From a virus: a stretch of DNA of 64,000 nt. Of the stretch, positions 3,346 to 9,603 are shown piece by piece (the first letter of the stretch is position 1; each line of letters opens with the position of its first letter). The notes below the pieces were generated by a model. That model saw only the letters and a program-made list of their open reading frames with translations, searched no databases and was not told the DNA's origin. The DNA lies in IMG/VR virus record IMGVR_UViG_3300036985_002246, positions 96,001 through 160,000 of that record. One strand, written 5' to 3'. The translations under genes were made by a program, and so were the position numbers.

Positions 3346-4309
3346 ATGAGCGACGAGTACACCTCGATCGACGACCTCCTGGCCCTCGAAGAGGGGGGCC
3401 GCACCCTCGACAAGAAGTCCCCGTACCAGAAGTCTGGTACGGGTCAGAACTCCTCGCTCAAAGCGATCCAAGCGGTCGAGGCCGAAATGGGCGAGAACCA
3501 TGTCCTCGACCGGTTTGGGTTCGTTCCGAAGTCGCTCCTCCGGTTTGAGAGGAGCCGGGAAATGCTCGAAGCGGTGAGTGACACCTCGAAGGTCAGGGGC
3601 CTTCTTCAGGGGCAGGGGTACGCCACCAATCTCCGCTTCTCAATCTACAACGTGGACGCGGCCAGGTTCTTCCTCGACTACTACCTGCCCCCGAGAGCAC
3701 TGGTGCTGGACCCGTTCATGGGTCGCTTCACGCGGGCGTTGTCCTCGCACTTGCTGGACATGACCTACGTTGGATTCGACACCTGTTCCGAGACAGTCGA
3801 GTTGAATCGCGAGTCACTCCTGCGGCACTTCAATCTGCCGGACCTCCCAGAGGGCTGGGAGTTGAACCACGGGGACGGGGTGGCACTCGCCCCCTACGCA
3901 GATCATGAGAGCGTGTTCGACGGGGTGTTCACCTGTCCCCCCCTACTACTCCACGGAGCAGTACAGCGGTGAGGCGGGCGACCTGTCCCACATGAAGGAG
4001 TCTGAGTTCAACGCGCAGATCGAGGTCCTGTTCAGGAACCTGTACCGGCTCGTGAAGCCCTCAGGCAAGCTCCGCCCCGACCTCCACCCAGTCGTCGTCA
4101 CAGTGGGCACCTTTCGGCAGGGAGAGCGGGGTCTGTTGGACATGGACTACCTCTTCCAACGGTGCGCCTACGACGCCGGGTTCGTCCTGCACGACAAGGT
4201 GGTCACGGAGAACTTCCCTCCGGGGGCTGGGTTCACGTTCCGCAGGAACTTCGGATTGGGGTTCGTGTGCAAGGCCCACGAGACCACCCTGGTCTTCCTC
4301 AAGCGGTGA
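3346..4309 (+). pseudogene. DNA amino-methyltransferase-like gene split by a one-base frameshift in a C7 tract
   Basis: ORF 3346-3972 has VLDPFMG...YVGFD and ends FTCPP; overlapping ORF 3905-4309 continues PPYYSTEQYSG...LYRLVKPSG; deleting one C of 3937-3943 gives FTCPPYY. Confidence 0.75.
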
Positions 4310-4351: not shown

Positions 4352-5323
4352 ATGACTGTCTCGCTCCTCTGGCGCACGGACGTACACCTGTCAGACCAAA
4401 CGCCCCGGTCTCGCAAGGACGATTGGACCGCGACCGTTCTGGGCAAGCTCGCTCAGATTGGTGACCTCGCCCGCAAGCTCAAGGTGGACGGCGTTCTGGA
4501 CGGCGGGGACTTCTTCGACCTGAAGAGCCCGACCCGGAACTCCCACGCGCTCATTCAGAGGGTGCTCTCGGTACACCGTGGCTACCCGTGCCCGGTCTAC
4601 GGGAACGTCGGGAACCACGACTGCGTCTACGGGGACTACTCGTTCCTGCCCCAGCAGCCGCTCGGGGTGCTCTACGAGTCGGGTGCCTTCCGGCGCTGCT
4701 ACGACGAGCACGAGGCGGTCTTCACCTCGAAGGGGGAGACAGTGAGGGTCGTGGGTGTGCCCTACCACGGGACCAAGTACGACCTCGACCGGTTCACTCG
4801 GATCAAGAAGGGCAGCGAGGACCACCTCGTGGTGGTCGCCCATGTGTTGGCGTCGCCGACCGGGGGCACGCTGTTCGAGTCGGAGGACGTGCTCAAGTAC
4901 GCCGACCTCGACACCTTCGACGGGGACGTATTCTGCTTCGGTCACTGGCACAAGGACCAGGGGATCACCGAGACTCCTGGGGGCAAGACGATCGTGAACG
5001 TCGGCTCCCTCACGCGGGGTTCGCTCTCGCAGGACGACCTCGACCGAGTCCCCTCAGCGGTGCTCCTCAAGTTCGACAAGGCGAAGGTCTCCGCCGAGAA
5101 GATCCCCCTCAGCTACACTGTGGCGTCGGAGGTGTTCGACCTGGAGTCGAGGGACACGGCGAAGTTGCGTGAGGGCATGATCGAGGAGTTCGTCGGGAAC
5201 ATTCAGACGATCCTCACCGCCAAGTCGAACCGCTCGATCCGCGACGCGATCCGCGACCTGCCCAACGTCCCCGACGAGGTGAAAGAGCAGACGCTCCTCT
5301 ATGTGGAGAAGGCGGGAGGGTAG
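4352..5323 (+). CDS. SbcD/Mre11-like metallophosphoesterase nuclease
   Basis: TDVH, GGDFFD, GNHD, VAH, GHWH phosphoesterase motifs; NVGSLTR. Confidence 0.9.
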   Translation: MTVSLLWRTDVHLSDQTPRSRKDDWTATVLGKLAQIGDLARKLKVDGVLDGGDFFDLKSPTRNSHALIQRVLSVHRGYPCPVYGNVGNHDCVYGDYSFLPQQPLGVLYESGAFRRCYDEHEAVFTSKGETVRVVGVPYHGTKYDLDRFTRIKKGSEDHLVVVAHVLASPTGGTLFESEDVLKYADLDTFDGDVFCFGHWHKDQGITETPGGKTIVNVGSLTRGSLSQDDLDRVPSAVLLKFDKAKVSAEKIPLSYTVASEVFDLESRDTAKLREGMIEEFVGNIQTILTAKSNRSIRDAIRDLPNVPDEVKEQTLLYVEKAGG

Positions 5324-5330
5324 GGTCAGC

Positions 5331-6323
5331 ATGGCGCGTGACCCGTCCCTCTGGTGGTCAAATTTGGCGGACTACGAGGAGTGCCCTCAGAAGCTCCTGT
5401 GGAAGCGCGGCCACGGCACGATCGACCTTGGGCGAGGCCCTGGACGTGGGAAGCTCCTGCCTGACACGAAGAAGTCCGCCCACCACGCAGTCATGGGCAA
5501 CGTGCTCTCGGCGGCGATCGAGGCGCTCTACAACGAGGAGTTGTGGCGTGACCCGGCCAATCTCTCGGCTCGGCTGGAGGAACTCACCCGCAAGGAGTTC
5601 AACCTTCAGATCCTGAAGAACCATATCGTCTGGTCCGAGACTCCCGACAGGCCCAAGTGGGACGAGGCAGCCCCGCGTGAGGTGCTGCTCAAGACCTGCC
5701 TGGACGGGATCCTGAACTACCTCAAGACCATGAAGCGGAACCGGCTGCTCGGCCCCTACGCCAAGTCTGAGGTCAATATTTTCGCCCGCGTGGGGGACAC
5801 ACCGATTGCAGGGCGACCTGACCTGATCATTCGTCGAGAGTCACCCAAGCTCTCAATCCTCGACGGGAAGAACTCCTCGACGCCGGGCAAGTACACCAAC
5901 CCGGACCAGCTACGCTGGTACGCGCTCTGCTACTTCCTGGCGCACGGGGAAATGCCTGACCGGCTGGCGTTCGTGTACTTCCGGTTCCCTGAGGGCTGCC
6001 CGCCCAAGGACTACGACGGCGACCCGGAGACGTGGACCGGCCTCGTGGAGGTCTCCTGCACCAAGGGGGACCTCAAGGACCTCTCCCACCGGGCGGTCGA
6101 GACGCACCAGGCGATCACGAAGGAACTCTTCGACCCAACCCCGAGCACGAAGTCCTGCCAGTTCTGCGACTTCCAGGAGGTTTGCCCCGCTCGCATTGAG
6201 CAGAAGGCGGCGAACATTCGCAAGAAGCCGCCGAAGTCGGAGGCAGAGGTGGCGCTCGACTCCTCTACGGGGATCATGGATCTCGGGTTCTTTGGGGGTC
6301 CAGAAGTGGACTCCAAGCCGTAA
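5331..6323 (+). CDS. PD-(D/E)XK nuclease, AddB/Cas4-like with Fe-S Cys staple
   Basis: N-terminal ECP; AGRPDLI...ILDGKN; QLRWY; C-terminal CQFCDFQEVC. Confidence 0.85.
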   Translation: MARDPSLWWSNLADYEECPQKLLWKRGHGTIDLGRGPGRGKLLPDTKKSAHHAVMGNVLSAAIEALYNEELWRDPANLSARLEELTRKEFNLQILKNHIVWSETPDRPKWDEAAPREVLLKTCLDGILNYLKTMKRNRLLGPYAKSEVNIFARVGDTPIAGRPDLIIRRESPKLSILDGKNSSTPGKYTNPDQLRWYALCYFLAHGEMPDRLAFVYFRFPEGCPPKDYDGDPETWTGLVEVSCTKGDLKDLSHRAVETHQAITKELFDPTPSTKSCQFCDFQEVCPARIEQKAANIRKKPPKSEAEVALDSSTGIMDLGFFGGPEVDSKP

Positions 6324-6336
6324 AGTGAGCCGAGTC

Positions 6337-9315
6337 ATGGCTGCCCCCTGGATTCTCCACCACGAAGACTGCCTCAAGACCATGGCTGCCATGGAGGCTG
6401 ACTCTGTGGATTCCGTCGTCTGTGACCCGCCCTACGGCCTGGAGTTCATGGGCAAGGATTGGGACCACGGTGTCCCCGGTGTCGAGTTCTGGATCGAGGC
6501 GCTGCGCGTCGCGAAGCCTGGGGCCTACCTACTCGCGTTCGGCGGGACACGAATGTACCACCGGCTCGCGGTCGCGATCGAAGATGCGGGGTGGGAGATC
6601 CGCGACGCAATCTCGTGGCTCTACGGCTGCTTGAGCGAGGACACAGAGGTCCTCATCAACGGGGCGTGGGTCCACTACCGTAGCGCCATTGAAGGAAGTC
6701 TCGCATTGTGCTACGACGCGGAGAATGACACGTTCTCGCAGCAGCCAGTCGAGCAGCTTTTCGTCTACGACTACGACGACACAGCCTACCGAATCGAGTC
6801 AGATCGCACCGATCAAGTCGTCAGCCGAAATCACCGCTGCATCGTCTGGCGTGACGGACGCTGGGGGTTCGTCCTCGCAGAAGAGGTGGCACGGGAACAG
6901 GAAGCGAGAGTACCCGTTCTCGAAGCCGTGTCAGACGTGCTCGACGCCCTTTCTCTGCTTCAACCGAACGCAGGCAGTTCGCAACCGGCTCTGCGCCGGG
7001 TGTCTGACGAAGGTTCACCGGGGTCCGCGCAAGAAGCCGGTGGCGCTTCGGGAGGGCATGACCGAGATCGCGTGCTCTGTCTGCGGCAAGAGGGTGTGGA
7101 AGCCGCGATCAGCCTTGAAGGTGGTGAAGCTGCCCTCGTGCTCCCGGCGGTGCAACGGGAAGCTGCGCGGGGCGGAGTGGGCGAAGCACGGGCACAAGGG
7201 CTCGGCAGCGGTGAGCCCGGAGGGCCGAGCGTCTGCTGTTGCAAAGATGACCGGCCCGCTCAATCCAGCGTGGAAGGGCGGGGTCACAATCTTCAGGAAG
7301 CACGGGAGCTACAAGGGGGTGCGATACGTTCGGTGCCCGCTGGATTTCCTTCCAATGGCGCGGAAGGACGGCTATGTGATGGAGCACCGTCTGATCGTGG
7401 CGAAGGTGCTGGGTCGCCGTCTCCTTCGGACGGAGACGGTGCATCACGAGGATCACGACCCGACGAACAATGCTCTGTGCAACCTGTCGCTGTTCAAGTC
7501 GAATCGGGACCACAAGTTGTACGAGCATCACGGTTCACCACTTCCGATCTGGCGAGGATCACCCCCCTCCACCTGACCGGGAAGGTGTGGTGCGTGAAGG
7601 TGCCGACCGGAGCTTTCGTCGCTCGTCGTAACGGCAAGGTGTTCGTCACAGGCAACTCAGGCTTCCCGAAGTCGCTCGACGTGAGCAAGGCAATCGACAA
7701 GGCGGCTGGTGCAGAGCGGGAAGTGGTAGGCCAATACAATTTGCCGTCCGATAGTACATCAGGGCATGCCGGAAAGCCTATCCATTCACATGTTGCGGGG
7801 TCTTTTCCACTTGCTCCTACTCCAAACGGAAGAGATATTACAGCCCCCGCCACCGACGCCGCTCGTCAGTGGTCCGGCTGGGGCACCGCGCTCAAGCCCG
7901 CGTGGGAGCCGATCATCGTCGCACGCAAGCCCCTGGGTACACCTGGAACAAACGTCGTGGCCGTGGTAGAATCTGCTCTGAGACGGCAGGGCGTCGTAGG
8001 GGAGATCCTGTGGAAGCCAGACGATGCAAAGGCTGCGGAGAAGTCAAGGAGCACAAGGACTTCGTACTCAACCGAACAGCAGAAAACGGCGGTAACATCT
8101 GCCGCAAATGCCGTCGAGAGAGGGACGCAAAGCACCGATCCGCTAACCGCGACCTCTACAGAGAACGGTGGAATCAGTGGTCCGCCGCGAACCCAGGCAG
8201 GTCCAGAGAACTCGCTCGCGCAAGCGAACGAAAACTACGCAACGAAGTGCTCGACGCCTACGGAGGCGCGTGTGCTTGCTGTGGGGAGCAAGAACGGGAC
8301 TTCCTCACCCTCGACCACATCAACGGCGGGGGTACAGCGCACCGGAGAGCTACACACGGAAAGGTCTACGGGGCCGTCCGAAGAGCAGGATTTCCTCCCG
8401 ACTATCGAATCCTTTGCTGGAATTGCAACTGGGCTTACCGGCTCTATGGCTCATGTCCACATCAAACGAGACAGTGATGGCTTCTTCGTATGGCCTGCGG
8501 GGCTACCCAGGAGCGCAGCAGGGGGCTCGCTAACCGTCGCGGCGAACGTCCTGAAGCATGGCACGGGTGGGATCAATATCGACGGGTGCCGGATCGAAAC
8601 AGCAGACAAACTTCTCATCCATACTCGGGGTGATTCTGGCAAGCGGGATACACGTCTGACCTACTCAGGAGGTGATTTCCCTCTTATTATGGAGCGCAAG
8701 GCCACTGCTGGTCAGGCTTTGGGACGCTGGCCCGCGAACGTGATCCTCGACGAAGAGGCCGCTGCGCTACTGGACGAGCAGACGGGCACGCTCGCGAGTG
8801 GGAAGGCGGCGCGGGGGGGACACCGACGCAAGGATTCGATGGGTGCGACCGGAGGGGCTGCTCTTGGCGGAAACGCCGATGGTTCCCTCCGAGCGGACGA
8901 GAACGCAGGCACGCTGTACGGGGACTCCGGCGGTGCTTCGAGGTTCTTCTACACCGCCAAAGCGAGCCGCTCCGAGCGCACGCACGGCGGGGAAGTGGTC
9001 AATCTGCACCCCACGGTCAAGCCAATCTCCCTCATGCGCTACCTCGTGAGGTTGGTGACGCCTCCCGGCGGCGTGGTGCTCGACCCGTTCTGCGGTTCTG
9101 GCTCAACGGGCGTTGGGGCAATCCTGGAGGGTTTCAACTTCGTGGGTTGTGAGAGGGAACTGGCGTCGGTCGAGACTTCCAGAGCCAGGTTTGAACTCGC
9201 AGTTCTCGTCTCTGTCGGTGGTGTGAAGAACCCCTGGGTGGACGACCTAGAGGTGCCCCCTGACGAGGTTGAGCCCCCGGCTGTCTCCTCAATCGAAGAC
9301 CTGTTCGGCTTTTGA
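6337..9315 (+). CDS. Beta-class N6A/N4C DNA methyltransferase carrying an intein and a second in-frame insertion
   Basis: VCDPPY catalytic motif; WLYG|SGFPKS; KPAWEPIIVARKP; RWPANV; HPTVKP; VLDPFCGSGSTG SAM motif. Confidence 0.9.
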   Translation: MAAPWILHHEDCLKTMAAMEADSVDSVVCDPPYGLEFMGKDWDHGVPGVEFWIEALRVAKPGAYLLAFGGTRMYHRLAVAIEDAGWEIRDAISWLYGCLSEDTEVLINGAWVHYRSAIEGSLALCYDAENDTFSQQPVEQLFVYDYDDTAYRIESDRTDQVVSRNHRCIVWRDGRWGFVLAEEVAREQEARVPVLEAVSDVLDALSLLQPNAGSSQPALRRVSDEGSPGSAQEAGGASGGHDRDRVLCLRQEGVEAAISLEGGEAALVLPAVQREAARGGVGEARAQGLGSGEPGGPSVCCCKDDRPAQSSVEGRGHNLQEARELQGGAIRSVPAGFPSNGAEGRLCDGAPSDRGEGAGSPSPSDGDGASRGSRPDEQCSVQPVAVQVESGPQVVRASRFTTSDLARITPLHLTGKVWCVKVPTGAFVARRNGKVFVTGNSGFPKSLDVSKAIDKAAGAEREVVGQYNLPSDSTSGHAGKPIHSHVAGSFPLAPTPNGRDITAPATDAARQWSGWGTALKPAWEPIIVARKPLGTPGTNVVAVVESALRRQGVVGEILWKPDDAKAAEKSRSTRTSYSTEQQKTAVTSAANAVERGTQSTDPLTATSTENGGISGPPRTQAGPENSLAQANENYATKCSTPTEARVLAVGSKNGTSSPSTTSTAGVQRTGELHTERSTGPSEEQDFLPTIESFAGIATGLTGSMAHVHIKRDSDGFFVWPAGLPRSAAGGSLTVAANVLKHGTGGINIDGCRIETADKLLIHTRGDSGKRDTRLTYSGGDFPLIMERKATAGQALGRWPANVILDEEAAALLDEQTGTLASGKAARGGHRRKDSMGATGGAALGGNADGSLRADENAGTLYGDSGGASRFFYTAKASRSERTHGGEVVNLHPTVKPISLMRYLVRLVTPPGGVVLDPFCGSGSTGVGAILEGFNFVGCERELASVETSRARFELAVLVSVGGVKNPWVDDLEVPPDEVEPPAVSSIEDLFGF
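6628..7656 (+). mobile_element. Intein (343 aa) in the DNA methyltransferase
   Basis: Starts CLSEDTEVL, block B SRNHR, ends VWCVKVPTGAFVARRNGKVFVTGN followed by Ser; exteins rejoin as WLYG-SGFPKS. Confidence 0.9.
6851..7576 (+). CDS. HNH homing endonuclease overprinted in the +1 frame inside the intein (start uncertain; frame open from 6689)
   Basis: Zn-finger pairs CQTC, CAGC, CSVC, CSRRC; NPAWKGG; EHRLIVAKVLGRRL...VHHEDHDPTNNALCNL. Confidence 0.8.
   Translation: MTDAGGSSSQKRWHGNRKREYPFSKPCQTCSTPFLCFNRTQAVRNRLCAGCLTKVHRGPRKKPVALREGMTEIACSVCGKRVWKPRSALKVVKLPSCSRRCNGKLRGAEWAKHGHKGSAAVSPEGRASAVAKMTGPLNPAWKGGVTIFRKHGSYKGVRYVRCPLDFLPMARKDGYVMEHRLIVAKVLGRRLLRTETVHHEDHDPTNNALCNLSLFKSNRDHKLYEHHGSPLPIWRGSPPST
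7936..8532 (+). mobile_element. Non-intein in-frame insertion (~199 codons) in the MTase; boundaries approximate
   Basis: Interrupts ARKPL...TVAANVLKHGTGGINIDGCRI, which is normally contiguous in this MTase family; no splicing motifs seen; no stop in the MTase frame. Confidence 0.7.
8010..8477 (+). CDS. HNH endonuclease overprinted in the +2 frame inside the MTase insertion
   Basis: AGGGGAG RBS 5 nt before GTG 8010; CKGC/CRKC finger; YGGACACCGE...LTLDHINGGG...RILCWNCN...CPH. Confidence 0.85.
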   Translation: MEARRCKGCGEVKEHKDFVLNRTAENGGNICRKCRRERDAKHRSANRDLYRERWNQWSAANPGRSRELARASERKLRNEVLDAYGGACACCGEQERDFLTLDHINGGGTAHRRATHGKVYGAVRRAGFPPDYRILCWNCNWAYRLYGSCPHQTRQ

Positions 9316-9329
9316 GCGTAAGGAGTACC

Positions 9330-9593
9330 GTGGACGTGAAAGCTCGGATCGAAGCTGCAATCAAGCGGCGGGACGACCTCCGCTCTCAGAAGGAGCGGAC
9401 ATTGGGCCGCCTCGAAGAGGCAGAGAAGAATCTCGAAGCTCTCCGCGCCGAGTGCCGGGCGAAGAACCTCGACCCGGACGGTTTGGCCGACACCGTGGCC
9501 AAGCTGGAAAAGGGGCTCCAGACCTCAATCTCGGACCTGGAGACGCAGATCTCCGAGGCCGAGAGTGCCCTCAAACCCTATCTGCAACCGTGA
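9330..9593 (+). CDS. Small coiled-coil protein (possible middle piece of split SbcC)
   Basis: AGGAG RBS before GTG 9330; heptad pattern throughout. Confidence 0.7.
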   Translation: MDVKARIEAAIKRRDDLRSQKERTLGRLEEAEKNLEALRAECRAKNLDPDGLADTVAKLEKGLQTSISDLETQISEAESALKPYLQP

Positions 9594-9603
9594 GAGAGCC
9601 CGC

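Follow-up and report, generated by a model that had tools for sequence, protein, structure and literature searches.

How can an intein be read through as part of its host protein when its homing endonuclease is written in another reading frame? The question is raised by a DNA methyltransferase gene in IMG/VR virus record IMGVR_UViG_3300036985_002246, a record of 199,475 bp with a completeness of 45% by CheckV estimate, of which positions 96,001 to 160,000 were analysed; this whole stretch of 64,000 nucleotides is termed the window and its first letter is position 1. In frame 1 of the window a single stop-free open reading frame (ORF) extends from 6196 to 9315 with a likely ATG at 6337, and the segment 6337-9315 matches Pfam N6_N4_Mtase (E 6.9e-24). 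An earlier note on this DNA had proposed that the gene is interrupted at 6628-7656 by an intein with intact splicing blocks (C1, SRNH, GN, +1 Ser), that the interior of the intein reads as junk in frame, that the +1 frame encodes an HNH nuclease with multiple zinc fingers and that the methyltransferase locus codes in all three forward frames. The analysis bears out these proposals, the intein coordinates and motifs being exact, with frame 1 used by host and intein, frame 2 by the nuclease, HNH1, and frame 0 by a second nuclease, HNH2, in insertion 2. We consider it likely that the locus holds a composite element consisting of a splicing intein which is read through and a separately initiated, homing HNH1 in the +1 frame. 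The parts of this element are as follows.

6337..6627, + strand: N-extein of the N6/N4 DNA methyltransferase with the DPPY motif, frame 1 (Pfam; 76% nucleotide identity to locus L084, the alignment stopping exactly at 6628)
6628..7656, + strand: intein of 343 codons in the methyltransferase frame (Cys1, S66xxH69 of block B, Cys322 at block F position 4, Thr341-Gly-Asn343, then +1 Ser)
6628..6957, + strand: N-terminal splicing lobe, residues 1-110 (beta-rich AlphaFold2 model; wobble at intein codon position 3 to ~6897)
6958..7494, + strand: intein-frame linker, stop-free, read but unselected as protein (low predicted local distance difference test score, pLDDT; wobble at HNH codon position 3; 0 stops)
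7495..7656, + strand: C-terminal splicing lobe with blocks F and G, ..VWCVKVPTGAFVARRNGKVFVTGN (pLDDT; likeness to ShiLan gp65, a mycobacteriophage protein; wobble at intein position 3 from 7558)
6851..7576, + strand: HNH1, putative nested free-standing homing-endonuclease gene in the +1 frame (proposed start GTG 6851, stop TGA 7574-7576; two Cys4 zinc ribbons and an HNH_3 core)
6851..6957, + strand: 5' dual-coding overlap, conserved both as the intein N-lobe end, ..AEEVAREQEARVPVLE.., and as the HNH N terminus, ..WHGNRKREYPFSKPCQTC..

The intein and the nuclease in its +1 frame

At the 6628 junction a conserved ..SWLYG is followed by Cys-Leu-Ser-Glu-Asp-Thr-Glu and at the 7656 junction ..VWCVKVPTGAFVARRNGKVFVTGN is followed by SGFPKS. 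The splicing motifs occupy defined positions, Cys1 (TGC) at 6628-6630, S66-R-N-H69 at 6823-6834, the terminal Gly-Asn at 7651-7656 and the +1 Ser (TCA) at 7657-7659. C1, H69, C322 and N343 are invariant in 40 relatives and all are kept in the window; Cys322 (F:4) and Thr341 (G:5) are likewise invariant. The closest solved relative, identified with a profile of the 40 relatives, is the class 3 split intein AceL NrdHF (6zgq, E 4.5e-8), and the intein combines Cys1 with a class 3-type block F Cys and block G Thr, without the block B Trp. Assignment to class 3, which is marked by a WCT triad, was rejected, B:12 being Cys or Val instead of Trp and Cys1 being invariant.

The predicted fold divides the intein frame in the same three parts as the feature list. 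In an AlphaFold2 model made with the 40 relatives, residues 1-110 are beta-rich with pLDDT values of 85-97, residues 112-280 have pLDDT <50 and no secondary structure, and confidence climbs again by residues 281-290 to reach ~74 at 291-300 and 92-97 from 301 to 343. The top Foldseek matches of the intein model in the PDB are all Hedgehog/intein (HINT) folds (Hedgehog 6tyy, AceL NrdHF 6zgq and DnaE 1zd7; probability 1.00, TM score ~0.55-0.60 on target). As judged from these motifs, the intein at 6628-7656 would splice in cis, rejoining WLYG-SGFPKS. An Rfam scan of 6000-9600 at E ≤1, which bears on a possible group I or II intron carrying the nuclease ORF, gave no match and no intron signal, and the selection for an open host frame described below argues for translation through the region. 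A fractured gene with a split intein was also considered and rejected, one stop-free ORF spanning 6337 to 9315.

Within the same DNA, frame 2 has no stop between 6635 and the TGA at 7574-7576; this open stretch contains ORF 6689..7576, whose product has two Cys4 zinc ribbons and an HNH core. Of 40 family members, 38 match Pfam HNH_3 (best E 1.9e-11); the copy in the window reaches 19.9-20.3 bits, short of the curated cut-off of 24.8. PHROG HNH families match HNH1 at E 2.6e-15. H179, N211 and H221 of the HNH are invariant, and the window lacks none of the Cys, His and Asn residues that are invariant across the family. The AlphaFold2 model of the HNH frame has a mean pLDDT of 86, although it is encoded by the same DNA as the disordered intein-frame linker. 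Structural similarity of this model to known proteins is limited: the best VIA-align match, I-HmuI (1u3e), is weak (Z 5.2, root-mean-square deviation 4.4, 79 residues aligned) and the only one with Z ≥5, the next being I-PpoI with Z 3.5, Foldseek against the PDB gave no significant match, and the HNH family profile, searched against PDB sequences, matched only zinc fingers, and these weakly. On its sequence features, HNH1 is predicted to be a nuclease active on intein-free alleles.

Selection on both frames and mobility of the element

The two frames carry distinct signatures of selection. GC content at the third codon position (GC3) in the window is highest for frame 1 up to ~6850-6900, for frame 2 (0.7-0.94) until ~7540 and then for frame 1 again. 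A column-entropy test, which is independent of composition, compared 44 aligned homologous inteins, all unique. Variability peaks at intein codon position 3 in 6628-6897 and 7558-7656 and at HNH codon position 3 in 6898-7557, and entropy is low at all three codon positions in 6838-6927. This pattern of variability indicates selection for the intein product at the two ends and for the HNH product in the interior. At the 5' junction, where the intein motif ..VP(V/I)LE.. overlies the HNH motif ..YPFWK.., ~35 codons appear from the alignment to be truly dual-coding. The HNH frame is strongly conserved among homologous inteins, the contrary of which the earlier note had listed as a possible objection.

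Conservation of an open host frame extends well beyond the window. A search with the HNH protein identified 79 viral loci and 619 proteins, and in nearly all of the loci the frame -1 to HNH is open within an ORF of 500-1190 aa and the third frame is closed, with 8 stops across HNH in the window. Synonymous permutation of the window HNH predicts 5.6-9.1 intein-frame stops where none is observed (P ~0.002 and <0.001). The host frame is stop-free across HNH in 69 of 69 testable loci ranging in GC from 28 to 71%, with 2-25 stops expected per locus; even in loci of 28-35% GC, where 15-25 would be expected, none is seen. In contrast, no testable locus has an open third frame. Avoidance was also counted directly in 62 unique HNH genes at junctions at risk, defined as those in which the next codon starts with AA, AG or GA. 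T is present at HNH codon position 3 in 0 of 3443 at-risk junctions as opposed to 25.1% of 8368 others; the corresponding values in the window alone are 0 of 48 and 28 of 180. Such stop avoidance shows that ribosomes pass through the nuclease gene in the host frame, and the -1 relation of host to HNH frame is the cheapest to keep because each host-frame stop is avoidable by a synonymous change in HNH. Dual coding and read-through of the HNH region are therefore well supported.

The element is widespread, and an empty allele exists. The same intein, at the same site and in the same methyltransferase family, is found in ~56 viral loci (GC 30-64%) and in the 484-kb uncultured phage LR756508.1 (GC 41%). 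L084, from a different metagenome, is an exact intein-free allele, ..SWLYG/SGFPKS.., whose nucleotide alignment to the window halts at 6628 and resumes at 7656, and Mantra gp64 has no interruption at the intein site either. HNH sequences of L013 and L014 are 100% identical with N-exteins 78% and C-exteins 45% identical, and those of L013 and L017 are 89% identical with exteins at 59% and 40%. By sequence comparison, this pattern has the form of a classical homing signature, observed in relatives of the window copy.

A homologous intein is known in which the nuclease is of another kind. Mycobacteriophage ShiLan gp65 (DNMT inteins, Kelley et al. 2016, PMC5050341) belongs to the same methyltransferase family and is interrupted at the same site, WLYG/C...TGN/SGFPKS; its N-lobe is ~37% identical to that of the window and its C-lobe, ..VWCVKVPTGAFVARRNGKVFITGN, is nearly identical. 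Between the lobes of the gp65 intein, unlike those of the window intein, lies an in-frame LAGLIDADG domain of canonical type. The presence of a homologous intein with LAGLIDADG at the same site suggests that the nuclease was exchanged within one intein lineage.

In the composite element as we envisage it, the HNH_3 gene would occupy the place of the canonical in-frame nuclease domain, but in the +1 frame. During translation of the methyltransferase, ribosomes would read through the HNH gene in the intein frame, producing a disordered linker of ~170-180 residues, and the two HINT lobes would fold together, excise the intein and restore WLYG-SGFPKS. The HNH would be produced by internal initiation inside the block-B codons, at GTG 6851 here and at a conserved TTG in most relatives, and would cut intein-free alleles at about the junction of TGGCTCTACGGC and TCGGGCTTCCCG, repair copying in the whole intein-HNH unit. 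The sole cost of the nuclease gene would be synonymous, no codon ending in T being allowed before a codon starting with AA, AG or GA.

HNH relatives are also found outside inteins. A shorter HNH, without the first zinc ribbon, is overprinted in the +1 frame directly in intein-less methyltransferase ORFs, between GFPKS and GTALKP, in L047-L051, L055-L057, L059-L061, L065-L067, L069, L072, L073, L077, L078, L080, L082 and L154, the last being a cultured strain, Cupriavidus sp. UYPR2.512 (NZ_KB903195.1). The host-frame flanks of the intein-less HNH are often CxC ... CxxC, possibly a zinc clasp that keeps the read-through loop aside. A further relative with 49% identity, L158 on plasmid pCPAA3 of Curtobacterium pusillum AA3 (CP018784.1), lies in its own frame of a 500-aa ORF with the -1 frame closed and may be an in-frame fusion of an HNH nuclease with another domain.

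In a quick tree, intein-less and intein-borne HNH copies are interspersed, implying at least two context switches. It is conceivable, if rather doubtful, that the HNH cassette itself, and not the intein, is adapted to life inside genes and is 'translationally transparent' in the -1 frame. Host-frame stops would arise only from T/AA, T/AG and T/GA junctions, so that only synonymous changes would be needed. Such a cassette could colonise either an intein, where the peptide is spliced away and where, at this locus, the LAGLIDADG of the ShiLan-type intein would have given way to it, or a tolerant loop, as in the intein-less 'class B' methyltransferases, where the peptide would stay; contexts would have been switched more than once.

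It is improbable that HNH1 of this copy is a relic, silent or inactive, with selection keeping only the methyltransferase frame open. The HNH_3 score of the window copy, 19.9-20.3 bits against a cut-off of 24.8, would fit a relic, as would GTG in place of the family TTG, the lack of a Shine-Dalgarno sequence before it and the failure to find near-identical copies. However, the window keeps every family-invariant residue, GC3 in the HNH frame is coding-like at 0.7-0.94 and the HNH frame has no internal stop, all of which argue against a relic.

Initiation of HNH1

The composite element requires a start for HNH1 within the intein, and the family alignment points to one. A TTG in the HNH frame stands at one alignment column in 39 of the 44 unique inteins, where 15 are expected from the use of T at third positions in the exteins (P<5e-6), and it arises from T at the synonymous third position of a block B Val/Ile codon (..HRC-L-V-E..). 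All five exceptions have another start-type codon. The window carries GTG 6851, L004 and L039 carry ATG and L021 carries a TTG displaced one codon upstream, all four lying within 3 codons of this column; in L006 the only candidate is a TTG 11 codons downstream, which follows GGGAG. In L039 an HNH-frame TGA directly precedes the ATG. HNH relatives in intein-less methyltransferases start at an ATG of their own, which often follows GGAG or GAGG. The possibilities raised previously for this locus were GTG 6851, ATG 7058 and a frameshift, and GTG 6851 is the one that the family alignment supports best. Initiation at ATG 7058, the choice of the gene caller (P0002, 172 aa), was rejected as it would drop the first invariant zinc ribbon, and ATG 6725 and TTG 6689 were rejected as they are not conserved among relatives. 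Separate production of HNH1 by internal initiation, putatively at GTG 6851 in this copy, is the favoured interpretation of the alignment.

The nucleotide sequence around the proposed start is itself unusual. Across the 44 inteins, at the equivalents of window positions 6832-6862, a motif, CATCGYTGCMTTGTTGAACGAGGCGGA, is conserved at synonymous sites of both frames over a GC range of 30-64%, a conservation that exceeds the needs of a start codon alone. GAGG/GGCGGA within CATCGYTGCMTTGTTGAACGAGGCGGA could be a ribosome-binding or structural signal. The window diverges from this motif.

A programmed +1 frameshift near block B, yielding an N-extein/N-lobe/HNH fusion as the product of shifted ribosomes and the splicing precursor as that of unshifted ones, is very unlikely because the window and its relatives share no slippery sequence, the window having ATC-GTC-TGG where the relatives have CTT-GTT-GAA. 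The HNH frame is open for 48-92 codons upstream of the conserved HNH N terminus in most loci, no clear Shine-Dalgarno sequence precedes the proposed start in intein-borne copies and CATCGYTGCMTTGTTGAACGAGGCGGA is unusually conserved, all of which a frameshift could accommodate. It does not accommodate the HNH-frame TGA immediately upstream of the ATG in L039, the ATG and GTG codons which compensate in loci lacking TTG, as befits a start codon and not a slip site, or the intein-less relatives, which start at ATG with a Shine-Dalgarno sequence.

In-frame fusions are rare, being called in 3 of >620 homologues. In P0124 and P0125 the HNH frame continues without a shift into the intein C-lobe and C-extein, and in P0126 the N-extein and N-lobe are fused to the C-terminal half of HNH. 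These three could be sequencing indels, or intermediates towards fractured genes or in-frame HNH inteins.

Such fusions, and a GC content of 62%, which makes stops rarer in non-coding frames, could be taken to indicate a non-splicing intein in a dead methyltransferase kept open by chance, or an indel that displaced an in-frame HNH, a view that is scarcely tenable given the permutation result for the window alone (P ~0.002 or lower), the lack of stops in all 69 loci and of T at all 3443 at-risk junctions, the two compensating indels that it would require and the intact splicing residues and methyltransferase motifs. The assembly indel that had been raised earlier as a way of undoing the out-of-frame layout is countered by recurrence of that layout in all of these testable loci, from unrelated metagenomes.

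Several observations nevertheless weigh against the composite element. With respect to initiation, no Shine-Dalgarno-like motif precedes GTG 6851, which is the weak point of internal initiation, a scan for promoters and terminators detected no promoter-like site on the + strand, and the TTG might be conserved for another reason, as a Leu codon needed in a longer N-terminal extension. With respect to the intein, the penultimate residue is Gly and not His, a deviation that is common among phage inteins (PMC5050341), and Pfam detected no family in the window's own intein-frame sequence, Intein_splicing being reached by only 4 of 40 relatives. Finally, no close relative (>70% identity) of the window's own copy was found; megablast of 6300-9400 against phage records likewise gave no match.

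Insertion 2, related elements and implications

Downstream of the intein the methyltransferase gene is interrupted a second time, and the remaining features of the locus are as follows.

7657..9315, + strand: C-extein of the methyltransferase with GFPKS, TVAANVLKHGTGG and the FxGxG motif; holds insertion 2
~7936..8532, + strand: insertion 2, non-splicing, in frame, between ARKPL and GTVAAN (by comparison with uninterrupted relatives and ShiLan gp65)
8010..8477, + strand: HNH2, an HNH/endonuclease VII-like gene in frame 0, +2 relative to the methyltransferase (AGGGGAG 5 nucleotides before GTG 8010; stop 8475-8477)

Insertion 2 (~7936-8532, between ARKPL and TVAANV) adds 199 read-through codons to the methyltransferase frame and has no intein motifs. 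By PHROG-type search HNH2 belongs to an HNH/endonuclease VII-like family, unlike HNH1. All ten of the nearest HNH2 relatives lie inside methyltransferase ORFs, with the frame relation seen here and an open host frame; relatives at greater distance are free-standing. The within-gene synonymous permutation has low power for HNH2 (P of 0 stops 0.12 in the window), and the case for insertion 2 therefore rests on the ten embedded relatives. Nucleotide identity between window 7834-8596 and L084:2825-3587 is 89.8%, whereas the flanking methyltransferase is only 70-78% identical, which suggests recent horizontal spread of insertion 2, independent of the intein and probably with short co-conversion tracts of the flanks. 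In L053 and L039, ShiLan-like insertions at the ARKPL site are flanked by duplicated host segments (..EPVIVAQKPL.. / ..EPIVLARKPLVG..), and in L039 the segment HEPIIxARKP..GTVADNVERWGTG is repeated up to three times. On these sequences, the ARKPL site looks like a hot spot for repeated invasion.

The gene just upstream of the methyltransferase (5301-6323) ends, by its translation only, in a C-x2-C-x5-C cluster (..SCQFCDFQEVCP..) that recalls Cas4/RecB-like exonucleases.

The earlier note had implied that an out-of-frame intein nuclease is novel, a claim preceded by two reports from 2025. Gosselin, Arsenault and Gogarten (bioRxiv 10.1101/2025.01.02.630785) described actinophage inteins with the nuclease in another frame (endonuclease VII-like, frame 3) or on the antisense strand, in DNA polymerase, minor capsid, terminase and thymidylate synthase genes of cultured actinophages. 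In that survey the out-of-frame case is called rare, all HNH inteins are in frame, there is no non-canonical case in a methylase, and the proposed origin is invasion of the intein by a free-standing nuclease gene. The window intein resembles these inteins in having lobes in the extein frame, a foldless middle, a same-strand nuclease ORF in another frame and an apparently mobile element. As in that survey, the intein frame has no fold between the lobes (pLDDT <45 over residues 112-280), as against a folded HNH frame (mean 86), and intein and nuclease spread as one unit, as seen in the relatives L013/L014/L017. It differs in that the nuclease is a zinc-ribbon HNH_3 in frame 2 (+1), the host is an N6/N4 methyltransferase, the proposed start lies inside the block-B codons with ~35 dual-coding codons, and the lineage is abundant in uncultured phages with GC of 30-64%.

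The second report (Arsenault, Gosselin and Gogarten, Genes 2025, PMC11855218) described the ShiLan domain, a hidden out-of-frame HNH in phage DNA methylases, without splicing lobes. In both cases an HNH is overprinted in the same methylase family within a stop-free host frame, and HNH1 is distantly related (30% identity, E 1e-6) to the HNH of Mantra gp64, a carrier of the ShiLan domain according to that report. The ShiLan domain is thought to stay in the mature protein, whereas HNH1 is enclosed by an intein able to remove the read-through peptide. Insertion 2 resembles the ShiLan domain in its location at the same ARKPL site and its use of the third frame; unlike the HNH of the ShiLan domain, HNH2 is from a different, endonuclease VII-like family. 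Mantra gp64 (L001) also has, towards its N terminus at residues ~55-190, a LAGLIDADG-type segment (..LAGLIDGEGCF..) that is in frame and shows no splicing lobes. The window gene does not have this segment, the 'lone LAGLIDADG' already noted in PMC11855218.

A likeness also exists to fractured genes, which, as described by Dassa et al. 2009 (PMC2677866), have a free-standing nuclease gene between the N- and C-intein parts of one host gene. There, two ORFs are joined by trans-splicing, whereas here one ORF runs through the nuclease and splicing would occur in cis; P0124 and P0125 may be steps between the cis layout and fractured genes. The principle, both of out-of-frame intein nucleases and of hidden HNHs in this methylase family, is thus already published (2025), and the present locus differs from the published cases in nuclease family, frame, host gene, block-B start, broad environmental range and a co-occurring ShiLan-type insertion.

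The 69 loci, with no T at 3443 at-risk junctions, constitute unusually clean evidence for selection on an overprinted frame, and the numbers suggest that the out-of-frame HNH intein layout is common, not rare, in environmental phages. Such loci are easily mis-annotated, as gene callers label the HNH an ordinary small gene or miss the intein. For intein biology, the layout would stand as a naturally occurring intermediate form between mini-inteins, canonical inteins and fractured genes. It indicates that an intein can house a nuclease gene without fusion and that its linker tolerates ~170-180 arbitrary disordered residues, and an unfused nuclease in a tolerant linker supports the view of intein origins in which splicing came first and the nuclease later.

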